Shown piece after piece: positions 2,447-24,017 of a stretch of 25,828 bases of DNA. The DNA comes from a virus (lineage: Duplodnaviria; Caudoviricetes). Location: positions 1-25,828 of the IMG/VR virus record IMGVR_UViG_3300025838_000116; one strand, written 5' to 3'. The position numbers were made by a program, and so were the translations under genes. Under the pieces are notes generated by a model, which worked only from the letters and a program-made list of their open reading frames with translations, was not told the origin of the DNA and searched no databases. Each line of letters opens with the position of its first letter. Within the stretch, counting starts at the first letter, position 1.

Positions 2447-2581
2447 AATAGGGTATGGTTTCTCCCCTTAATGAGAAATTGTTTGTTTAAGGAGCTTCCC
2501 ATGAAACGTGGTTCACGCAAACACAAGCGTAAGTAATTATGCCGACATTGGCAGTATGTCGTAAAATACTGCCACCCTATT
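2447..2581 (+). ncRNA. Candidate structured RNA: closing helix plus two H-type pseudoknots flanking a mini-ORF
   Basis: AATAGGG(2447-2453)/CCCTATT(2575-2581). PK-A: GGTTTCTC(2457-64)/GAGAAATT(2473-80) with CCTTAA(2466-71)/TTAAGG(2487-92). PK-B: CGACA(2543-47)/TGTCG(2557-61) with TGGCAGTA(2549-56)/TACTGCCA(2567-74). Confidence 0.6.
2501..2536 (+). CDS. Protamine-like micropeptide MKRGSRKHKRK (11 aa)
   Basis: Strong TAAGGAG SD at 2488-2494, 6 nt before the ATG; 7 of 11 residues K/R. Confidence 0.65.
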   Translation: MKRGSRKHKRK

Positions 2582-2625: not shown

Positions 2626-3150
2626 ATGAGTGTCCCGTCAGATAAGTTAATGGAGTTAATGAAAGGCAGTCGTTCTGCTGGAACGCCTATGCCTGGTGCA
2701 CAGGATGCGCCCCCTCCAGGTGCTAATATGTCTGATGCTGAAGTACCTCCTATGGGTTCTCCAATGTCAACTCCTGAACCTAAGATGGGTTCTAAGGAGG
2801 CTGCAAAAATTAATTTAGGTATGGCTCAAGATTTACTAGAGCAATCTTTACCTGCATTAGGTTCTGATTCTGAAGAGGGCAAAGCAGCGCTCGCAGCTAT
2901 CGGTGCAATCAACAAGATTCTTGGTGCACGTAAGAACAAAACAAACGAATTACAACAGTCAGAAATTCTTCAGATGTTGCAAACACTACCGCAAGCTGGT
3001 GGTGGCACTCCAGAAGGAAAAGCTATGGCTGGTTCACCTATACCTGGTATGTCACCTCCTGGTGGTATGCCTCCTCCACCTCCAGCACCTGGCGGTGGTA
3101 TGCCTCCCCCTCCTGGTGGTATGCCAGGGCTTCCCCCACCCCCAATGTAA
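2626..3150 (+). CDS. Proline/glycine-rich head-module protein (174 aa)
   Basis: Start reassigned to ATG 2626 because of the AAGGAG SD; helical core flanked by Pro/Gly/Met-rich tails with PPGGMPPP repeats. Confidence 0.8.
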   Translation: MSVPSDKLMELMKGSRSAGTPMPGAQDAPPPGANMSDAEVPPMGSPMSTPEPKMGSKEAAKINLGMAQDLLEQSLPALGSDSEEGKAALAAIGAINKILGARKNKTNELQQSEILQMLQTLPQAGGGTPEGKAMAGSPIPGMSPPGGMPPPPPAPGGGMPPPPGGMPGLPPPPM

Positions 3151-3943: not shown

Positions 3944-4966
3944 ATGGCTATAGGTGGTGGAATTCTGCCCCAGACAGGTAGTTCACAATTTACGGAACTT
4001 ACGTATGTAACCCGTAGAGCGTTTATTCCCAAACTGGTTGTGCAGTTATACAACAGTACGCCTTTGATGGCAGCGTTGATTGCAAACAGTCAACAAGCAT
4101 CAGGTGGTGTATCTTCAGTAACCGTGCCCGTCCAAGGCGCACAGTTTGTTAACGCACAGTGGTCTGACTACTCTGGCTCTTTTGCCCAGCCGTCAGTACA
4201 ACAAGGTGCTTACAACGCTGAGTTTGACCTCAAGTTGATGATTTCTCCCGTGCCGTTCCTCGGTATGGAAGGCGTTGCTCAACAAGACGCTGCAATTATT
4301 CCATTGATTGAAGCACGTATGAATGACGCAACCAACGTGATGATGGATGCAATGGCAACAGCCTTGTATAACAACACCACAAACAACCAACAATTTATCG
4401 GACTCCCCGCAGCGGTGGATGACGGTACAGGTGGTGCAACATACCAGACTACTTACGGTAACATCAACCGTAGCACCTACACATGGTGGCAGTCTAAGGT
4501 TTACAACGCAGGTAACGTAAACCCAACAAGACAAAACATTCTTCAGTACATTTCTGGAACAGTTAAAAGGGGTGCAGAAATGCCTTCTTTTGGTGTTTGC
4601 GGATTTGGTACATGGACACTCTTAGCTCAAGACTTTGTTGGTCAAGAGCAATACGTTATCACTCCTGGCTCAGGCTTTGATAGTGACAACAACGGTCCTC
4701 AAGCAGCGTTCAGAGCGTTGATGGTTGCGGGCGTTCCAATTTATCCAGACCCATATTGTCCAGAAGGCACTGTGTACTTCCTGAACACCAACTACTTGAG
4801 CTTGTACATTCACGAGCAAGGTTCATTTGTGTTCACAGGATTTGAGTCCACATTACCTAACTGGCAAATTGGTTACGTAGGTGCGGTTCTTATGATTGCT
4901 GAGTTGGTGTCTGTAAAGCCCAAGGCAATGTCAAAAGTTACCAACTACAACTACCTCTCACTGTAA
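3944..4966 (+). CDS. Major capsid protein (HK97 fold)
   Basis: 340 aa; position after the scaffold; strong SD; motifs LVVQLYNSTPL, FIGLPAAVD, YGNINRSTYTWWQ and GVPIYPDPYCPEGTVYFLNTNYL are typical of podoviral coat proteins. Confidence 0.88.
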   Translation: MAIGGGILPQTGSSQFTELTYVTRRAFIPKLVVQLYNSTPLMAALIANSQQASGGVSSVTVPVQGAQFVNAQWSDYSGSFAQPSVQQGAYNAEFDLKLMISPVPFLGMEGVAQQDAAIIPLIEARMNDATNVMMDAMATALYNNTTNNQQFIGLPAAVDDGTGGATYQTTYGNINRSTYTWWQSKVYNAGNVNPTRQNILQYISGTVKRGAEMPSFGVCGFGTWTLLAQDFVGQEQYVITPGSGFDSDNNGPQAAFRALMVAGVPIYPDPYCPEGTVYFLNTNYLSLYIHEQGSFVFTGFESTLPNWQIGYVGAVLMIAELVSVKPKAMSKVTNYNYLSL

Positions 4967-23824: not shown

Positions 23825-23873
23825 GACTTTGCGTCTGTAGCAAGCTCCCACTGCTGTTTTTTTAATACTTTTT

Positions 23874-23934
23874 GGTGTCCCTTTTTTGGGTGTACTCCCA
23901 AATTTTGGGGGGGGACACCTTCTGGGGGACACCT
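23874..23934. repeat. Cluster of GGGACACC repeats
   Basis: GGGGGACACCT at 23910-20 and 23924-34; inverted GGTGTCCC at 23874-81; variant GGGTGTAC at 23888-95. Confidence 0.7.
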
Positions 23935-23941
23935 AAAAATA

Positions 23942-24017
23942 TGGTGGGACGTGCGGGGGTCGAACCCACGACAAACGGATTAAAAGTCCGCTGCTCTACC
24001 AACTGAGCTAACGTCCC
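23942..24017 (-). tRNA. tRNA-Lys (anticodon UUU), CCA encoded
   Basis: GGGACGTTAGCTCAGTTGGTAGAGCAGCGGACTTTTAATCCGTTTGTCGTGGGTTCGACCCCCGCACGTCCCACCA, a 76-nt cloverleaf. Confidence 0.97.

Follow-up and report, generated by a model that had tools for sequence, protein, structure and literature searches.

The interval between the portal and head genes of this phage raises the question of whether a very short reading frame lying between two predicted pseudoknots is a conserved unit and, if so, what its RNA and its product might do. The window, that is, the whole stretch of DNA analysed here, is a 25.8-kb phage contig, with the structured region placed after its portal gene and ahead of the genes for head assembly. 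A sequence-only reading had described this region as a mini-ORF caged between two H-type pseudoknots and a closing helix, and had proposed it as a new class of structured RNA. All of the pairings that it named are present in the DNA where it had placed them, and both homologue comparison and Rfam searches bear out its central claim of a conserved pseudoknot/mini-ORF/pseudoknot unit outside the Rfam families. As judged from aligned relatives, the conserved unit is, in order, a predicted pseudoknot (PK-A), a Shine-Dalgarno (SD) sequence, a Lys/Arg ORF of 11-15 aa, a GNRA hairpin, a second predicted pseudoknot (PK-B) and a TTGACA promoter-like site. The features of the interval are as follows.

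579-2204, + strand: portal protein gene (PHROG portal matches; Pfam SU10_portal PF23899)
2201-2374, + strand: ORF1, 57 aa with a basic C-terminus (homologues translated)
2303-2331, + strand: P1, putative promoter TTGACA-17-TAAAAA inside ORF1 (pattern in 104/142 loci)
2390-2434, + strand: micro-ORF2, 14 aa, MMHRYGKRGRKTRR; optional in the family, preceded here by an SD-like AAGGA (2377-2381)
2434-2449, + strand: GAAA-loop hairpin directly after the ORF2 stop codon (predicted fold)
2450-2480, + strand: PK-A in its conserved register (covariation; anchored in 134/148 loci)
2466-2471/2487-2492, + strand: alternative pairing of the PK-A loop with the SD, CCUUAA/UUAAGG, 6 bp (weak excess over swapped partners)
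2490-2494, + strand: SD AGGAG of micro-ORF3 (sequence; GGAG anchored in 102/102 segments)
2501-2536, + strand: micro-ORF3, 11 aa, MKRGSRKHKRK (sequence, translation)
2527-2542, + strand: hairpin with the micro-ORF3 stop codon in its GUAA (GNRA) loop (predicted fold)
2543-2574, + strand: PK-B, H-type pseudoknot with S1 2543-2547/2557-2561, L1 U, S2 2549-2556/2567-2574 and L3 UAAAA
2580-2608, + strand: P2, putative promoter TTGACA-17-TACAAA before putative scaffold and capsid genes (TTGAC in 137/142 loci)
2626-3150, + strand: next conserved ORF, 174 aa, no family match; other head genes follow, and then the major capsid gene at 3944

Relatives of the locus and the encoded peptides

Portal-based scans yielded 244 loci (from best-80 lists, not random samples), including 203 in which both flanking genes are present and 142 that are distinct; to the latter six loci were added for a tree of 148 distinct loci. 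The cassette, with a micro-gene between two predicted pseudoknots, was found in more than 100 relatives of this uncultured phage. Only two relatives, both uncultured, were among the GenBank matches, and the micro-ORF peptides are unannotated in both; blastn of the region against GenBank phages gave no match, and no RNA data set was among the sequencing runs listed for the region. A pattern scan with the PK-A core gave 120 viral and 120 metagenome stretches among the matches listed, and about 460 stretches matching one strict pattern are estimated in IMG/VR. Three GTDB contigs, two titled beta proteobacterium and one Legionella, hold relatives and may be misbinned phage pieces. We rejected a riboswitch of the host chromosome, as the PK-A core pattern was absent from 400 sampled bacterial genomes of the order that holds two MAG matches.

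The gap between the portal and head genes contains ORF1 as well as micro-ORF2 and micro-ORF3, and both micro-ORFs have an SD-like motif. ORF1 had no Pfam or PHROG family match (its best Atlas lead scored only 0.76), and it is missing from the distant clade L426-L430. Micro-ORF2, the two GNRA hairpins and the two promoter-like sites had been overlooked in the first reading. Altogether, 169 distinct micro-ORFs, starting with AUG or GUG and present in one to three copies per phage, encode 99 distinct peptides with 62% Lys+Arg. The script found a basic ORF after the PK-A core in 109/120 viral and 118/120 metagenome stretches among those listed, and in the remaining stretches there is a longer basic ORF or the sequence ends early. 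Among 43 distinct versions of ORF3, pairwise comparison of the last eight codons gave 1586 synonymous differences, 861 Lys/Arg swaps and 1757 other differences. These codon differences, together with the conserved SD, support the view that micro-ORF3 is probably translated.

Some lineages depart from the common micro-ORF layout. In L326, L351, L359, L361 and their relatives, ORF3 is longer (about 24 aa) and is followed by a short PK-B that starts at the stop codon. Among L092, L135, L136, L142, L144, L179 and L203, a micro-ORF ends in Cys-Lys, Cys-Arg or Cys, and two loci have three copies. The commonest micro-ORF codon is AAA, and a tRNA-Lys(UUU) gene lies at 23942-24017 on the minus strand of the window; tRNA-Lys was present in 21/80 loci around the neighbouring gene.

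Two predicted pseudoknots around the micro-gene

The 135-nt region folds better than its shuffles (z -4.2), and so does its minus strand (z -3.8). In a strict H-type scan with our own script both pseudoknots scored 33. When each region was shuffled 2000 times, the strength of PK-B was reached in 2 shuffles, and that of PK-A in the form first proposed, with the loop paired to the SD, in 12. The same scan found 14 pseudoknots scoring at least 30 when both strands of the window are counted, and a pseudoknot seen in a single sequence therefore proves little. The script chooses the best pairing, and the swap and shuffle controls leave some relatedness between sequences. A minus-strand reading was set aside: that strand folds almost as well, but its pseudoknot would have to span an 8-bp stem with 1 nt, and the placement of the ORFs, the SD and the GNRA loops on the plus strand also disfavours it.

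Searches for known RNA families agree with the proposed novelty. The only gathering-level Rfam match in the window is tRNA-Lys, outside the region; a local Rfam search of the region gave only one chance match (Yfr10, E 5.8), and nothing was found in five related loci. ARAGORN likewise found no tmRNA in the window and only the tRNA-Lys, in line with the earlier observation that a tRNA-like domain is absent.

PK-B is well supported: it was confirmed by covariation and is carried by 131 of the 148 distinct related loci; both PK-A and PK-B were called by the script in 131/148. It occurs in 59 distinct versions, with 23 S1 and 48 S2 helices, an L1 of 1-3 nt and an L2 of 0-2 nt. Scores of at least 24 were reached in 92/94 segments versus 14% of shuffles, and the mean length of S1 is 4.4 bp with native partners versus 2.9 bp with swapped ones. 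In a MAFFT alignment of 27 sequences both sides change in 8/9 pairs. The covariation in this alignment is 0.69, compared with 0.23 for shuffles and a maximum of 0.21 when slid, with a bias in favour of the structure, as the 27 sequences derive from the 42/88 with similar loop lengths and were cut around the called fold. About 30 changes of S1 state are needed on the portal tree. Comparison of the loci thus describes PK-B as a predicted element whose shape is kept and whose sequence is free.

Two further ideas were weighed. PK-B is similar to tmRNA pk1 at the local level, as had been pointed out, but the CGA/UCG likeness is not conserved, given the 23 versions of S1; because the PK-B helices vary so widely, the resemblance is one variant among many. 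The second idea is that the pseudoknots stimulate recoding, by stop-codon readthrough or frameshifting, so that the micro-ORFs would be fused with one another or with the following gene. In its favour, PK-B starts 6 nt after the micro-ORF3 stop codon in the window, where ORF2 and ORF3 also share an open frame. Across loci, however, the distance from stop to PK-B ranges from less than 10 to more than 60 nt, the ORF2-ORF3 frame is spread over three phases, and it is open in only 16/126 loci. We therefore give this explanation almost no credence, the variable spacing and the unconserved frame ruling it out. A tymovirus-type tRNA-like end, in which an invariant unpaired 3' CCA follows the pseudoknot, was also discarded: a CCA stands at the end of PK-B S2 in 102/131 loci, mostly paired within the stem.

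PK-A is borne out by the homologues in a register different from the one first proposed. Its hairpin is conserved, but the conserved second stem pairs the loop CCCU (2465-2468) with the upstream AGGG (2450-2453) and not with the SD. The resulting layout (S1 AGGG/CCCU, L1 UAU, S2 2457-2464/2473-2480, L3 UAAU) has the same topology as PK-B, and since the loop covaries with the upstream AGGG, the SD is left free. In a MAFFT alignment of 55 sequences 97% of the cells of the upstream stem are paired. The outer pair is AU in 39, CG in 6, GC in 2, UA in 1 and UG in 1, and is unpaired in 6 (n=55); window-type rows are one column out of register in this alignment, which lowers the S2 count. Across 189 distinct cores, a set that includes pattern-selected loci and for which the register was picked for best pairing, the outer pair is Watson-Crick in 88% versus 62% paired in shuffles, with a mutual information of 0.72 bits. 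The PK-A core is near-invariant in sequence and is conserved down to about 44% portal identity. Most relatives have tandem U-G or pyrimidine mismatches in S2, which the window does not have. PK-A ends 9 nt before the SD in the window, and the distance is similarly short in relatives.

The SD-blocking fold had been presented as the defining one. It is indeed 6 bp long here, but only 40% of lineages can form at least 4 bp of it, versus 93% for the upstream pairing, and 60% are limited to 3 bp or fewer. Both pairings draw on the same bases of the loop and are mutually exclusive, so PK-A might be a two-state translational switch, in which free peptide or a host polycation (spermidine) moves the loop from the NGGG to the SD and stops peptide synthesis when packageable DNA is scarce or polyamines are plentiful. 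This possibility, the main rival to our preferred reading and a corrected form of the autoregulation suggested by the first reading, appears doubtful to us, although several observations speak for it. When each of 31 clusters is represented by a single sequence, the loop:SD stem averages 3.69 bp versus 3.29 bp with swapped partners, and reaches 6 bp or more in 15% versus 5%; the sequences that form it differ between lineages. In the window the SD form makes the stronger duplex (-6.2 kcal/mol versus -4.6 for the upstream stem), the core is conserved to the depth given above with S2 mismatches in most relatives, and the T4 gene 32 operator offers a precedent (PMC3014915). Against the switch, the swap test on duplex energies was not significant (35/300), the fourth SD pair is formed in 33% of cases versus 39% by chance, and the mutual information for the SD pairing is 0.16 bits versus 0.72 for the upstream pair. 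Moreover, conservation of both loop and SD for other reasons makes part of the CC/GG pairing between them automatic, and S2 of the window has no internal mismatches. The SD-closed fold would thus be an optional, second state at most, as far as the comparison of lineages indicates.

The closing helix, AAUAGGG (2447-2453) with CCCUAUU (2575-2581), had been thought to turn the region into a closed cage. It averages 3.46 bp in native loci and 3.43 bp with swapped partners, and reaches 6 bp or more in only 7/93 loci; because this end-to-end helix does not covary, the closed cage is not supported. Its 5' strand is split between the GAAA hairpin, which takes the AAU formerly assigned to the helix, and PK-A, and its 3' end overlaps the TTGACA. 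The helix is present in the single-sequence MFE fold of the window, with a duplex energy of -7.4 kcal/mol, and on this folding model may compete in this lineage. In the window the energies favour loop:SD pairing plus the closing helix, against the conserved-register reading, and the SD-paired and closed forms are energetically competitive in this phage.

The small hairpins recur more widely. One of -2 kcal/mol or better follows ORF2 in 79/89 distinct segments, with a GNRA loop in 29/89, and a GNRA hairpin lies near the micro-ORF3 stop in 50/78 distinct segments. In some relatives (L083:6061-6100, L095, L109, L180) a small hairpin with a loop ending in GA, often UGA, lies between the stop and PK-B. 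The same GA-ending loop recurs after the last micro-ORF in L426-L430, as the loop of the terminator-like hairpin there; it is absent from the window, and it may be a protein-binding site.

Ends of the putative transcript

The micro-gene region is flanked by two promoter-like sites. The Leu codon at P1 is TTG in 69/73 sequences versus 25% in portal genes. The pattern TTGACA-17-TA(A/C)AAA occurs twice in the window, with 0.5 expected, and two were reached in 7/100 shuffles. A consensus promoter scan gave chance-level sites only and missed both P1 and P2, neither of which has the usual last T of the -10 box. P2 is independent of the RNA folds, because it is also found in relatives without pseudoknots. 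An inverted repeat, GTTTGTAA...TTACAAAC at 2589-2610, overlaps P2; it is kept in many but not all relatives and is a possible operator.

The pattern match L373 has a portal only 44% identical to that of the window, and its relatives were found by protein similarity. This distant clade keeps the PK-A core and the peptide and is without ORF1 and ORF2. A TTGAC-type site lies just upstream of PK-A in 3/4 members, and PK-B is replaced by a hairpin after the ORF, which is terminator-like in L429 and L430 (2/4). The promoter-like site before PK-A and the terminator-like hairpin that follows the ORF in two of the four make a discrete mini-mRNA plausible; by these ends the unit would be about 130 nt long in the distant relatives. 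A second basic micro-ORF of about 13-18 aa was observed in L426-L430 after the terminator-like hairpin, touching the start of the putative scaffold gene.

Alternatively, PK-B could act on transcription, as a non-canonical terminator or pause element shielding P2, and contribute nothing to RNA stability or peptide output. PK-B ends 1-9 nt before TTGAC in most loci, the L428 hairpin (described as terminator-like but not flagged as a terminator) abuts TTGAC likewise, and the terminator-like hairpins of L429 and L430 fill the PK-B slot. Most loci, however, have no U-tract after PK-B, PK-A is left unexplained, and the pairing of the PK-B loop that forms S1 is strictly kept, which an ordinary terminator hairpin would not need. 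We consider this explanation quite improbable.

Another view is that the RNA itself is the active product, being packaged, aiding head assembly, or binding and diverting host ribosomes or nucleases, with the peptide as a cofactor. A discrete unit of this size that adjoins the portal gene would fit it, as would the resemblance to the order of the mRNA-like domain of tmRNA, in which pk1, the tag ORF, H5 and pk2 follow one another and the stop codon lies in a hairpin loop. The likeness is one of layout only: pseudoknots on either side of a short ORF whose stop codon sits in a hairpin loop. The tag frame of tmRNA is entered without an SD and AUG of its own. We rejected tmRNA as an identity for the cassette: Rfam and ARAGORN show no tRNA-like domain, the ORF has its own SD and AUG, and the peptide is basic. 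The same absence of a tRNA-like domain and the ORF's own start signals argue against an RNA product in general, as do the lack of end-to-end pairing, the unconstrained sequence of PK-B and the separate gain and loss of the parts (PK-B only in L147-L150, neither pseudoknot in the L158 clade, no PK-B in L428-L430). On balance an RNA product is improbable.

Fourteen of the 148 loci were scored with neither pseudoknot; among these, a fold like PK-B is present in L147-L150, and both pseudoknots can be recognised by eye in L304. The clade of L158 and L245-L302, as well as L142, has a single basic ORF and no pseudoknot. Because L142 and the L158 clade keep the basic ORF alone, the pseudoknots are not essential for the peptide.

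Possible function and known counterparts

The reading we prefer, to which we assign a probability of about one half, is that the two predicted pseudoknots likely make the Lys/Arg micro-gene between them a short message that is stable and highly productive, encoding a probable DNA-neutralising peptide of head assembly. The two predicted folds, the SD and the ORF in fixed order are its established part, by comparison of related loci. Transcription would start from P1 or, in the distant relatives, from just before PK-A, and a short transcript or processed fragment would carry the micro-gene. In its conserved register PK-A would tie up the anti-SD-like CCCU with the upstream NGGG and leave the SD open. 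In addition, PK-A may protect the 5' end or, as is thought for the tisB and timP pseudoknots, recruit 30S/S1. PK-B would mark and protect the 3' boundary, right before the capsid-gene promoter, filling the slot of the distant relatives' terminator-like hairpin. The SD-paired fold would be a competing state that damps translation where it is long, this lineage included. The product could act in head assembly or DNA packaging as a polycation supplied in bulk. Further points weigh against this preferred reading: the invariance of the PK-A core exceeds what a passive stabiliser needs, and the absence of a U-tract after PK-B means that 3'-end formation is not accounted for.

A more elaborate version, which we regard as unlikely, would make the cassette a phage-specific, self-regulating mini-mRNA of about 130-250 nt, with PK-A sensing free polycation, either its own product or polyamines of the host, and flipping between SD-open and SD-closed states and the 3' pseudoknot setting the RNA end. 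If so, the phage would make an 11-15 aa polyamine substitute only as DNA packaging needs it.

Among known systems, the leader of T4/T2 gene 32 is similar in having a phage H-type pseudoknot upstream of the SD and a nucleic-acid-binding product, and gene 32 mRNA is described as very stable with a leader pseudoknot (PMC3014915). It differs in that its pseudoknot lies 67 nt upstream and is accompanied by an unstructured A+U tract, and in that its product is a folded protein (PMC3014915). In contrast, PK-A ends much closer to the SD and can pair with it, the 11-aa product is encoded ahead of a second pseudoknot. If PK-A does switch, it would add a case to gene 32, perhaps the only viral pseudoknot in translational autoregulation according to a 2010 review (PMC3014915).

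The cassette also has counterparts for its leader and for its product in other systems. The peptides of tisB and timP are hydrophobic membrane toxins under antisense control. Their small-peptide mRNAs likewise have a pseudoknot in the leader, which is needed for translation, with recognition by S1/30S shown for tisB and proposed for timP (PMC11228461). The products considered here differ from them in being Lys/Arg polycations in a phage head operon. The J protein of phiX174 is longer than the micro-ORF peptides, and we know of no pseudoknots flanking its gene. As a basic protein acting in DNA packaging inside the capsid, Microviridae J resembles the micro-ORF peptides in being a small basic product encoded among head genes (PMC11945456). 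J, however, belongs to ssDNA phages, whereas this is a tailed dsDNA phage with one to three paralogous micro-ORFs, and the likeness drawn is one of kind. The preQ1 and SAM-II riboswitches contain an H-type pseudoknot able to cover the SD. We rejected both, as the region gave no match to an Rfam covariance model; in the conserved fold the SD appears to stay free, with a weak excess of SD pairing across lineages, and the gene that follows here encodes a peptide and not a biosynthetic or transport function. Repeats of the type III antitoxin kind were rejected as well, given no Rfam match and the different sequences of PK-A and PK-B. By analogy, the cassette would work most like the gene 32 and tisB/timP leaders, with a product like phiX174 J, and it is a member of none of these families.

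We found no account of this element among the papers that the literature searches listed. As far as checked it is a new RNA family assembled from known kinds of parts, although the candidate sets of PMC10690425 (which reports 10,006 viral candidate RNAs) and PMC5737381 may already hold its motifs. The two pseudoknot families show strong covariation, are absent from Rfam 15, occur in a widespread group of uncultured phages and are attached to micro-genes missed by annotation. The neutralisation of packaged DNA in tailed phages beyond host cations is poorly known, and a role in it could be tested with an RNA of roughly 60 nt and the 11-residue peptide.

A further H-type pseudoknot lies at the other end of the window.

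23814-23775 within 23820-23765, - strand: third H-type pseudoknot with 7-bp and 8-bp stems and a GUUAG/CUAAC-type closing helix

It stands 3' of the tRNA-Lys gene and just before the SD of the ORF at 23756-23001, and had no credible Rfam match. It was present in 20/80 related loci (13 distinct), where both stems and the flanking helix vary in step, and it sometimes precedes other genes. Such a third family of pseudoknots, placed ahead of other SDs in the same phages, is consistent with leader pseudoknots being in general use. Between the tRNA and this pseudoknot, at 23865-23930, GGTGTCCC repeats and the complementary GGGACACC give rise to a high-scoring structure.
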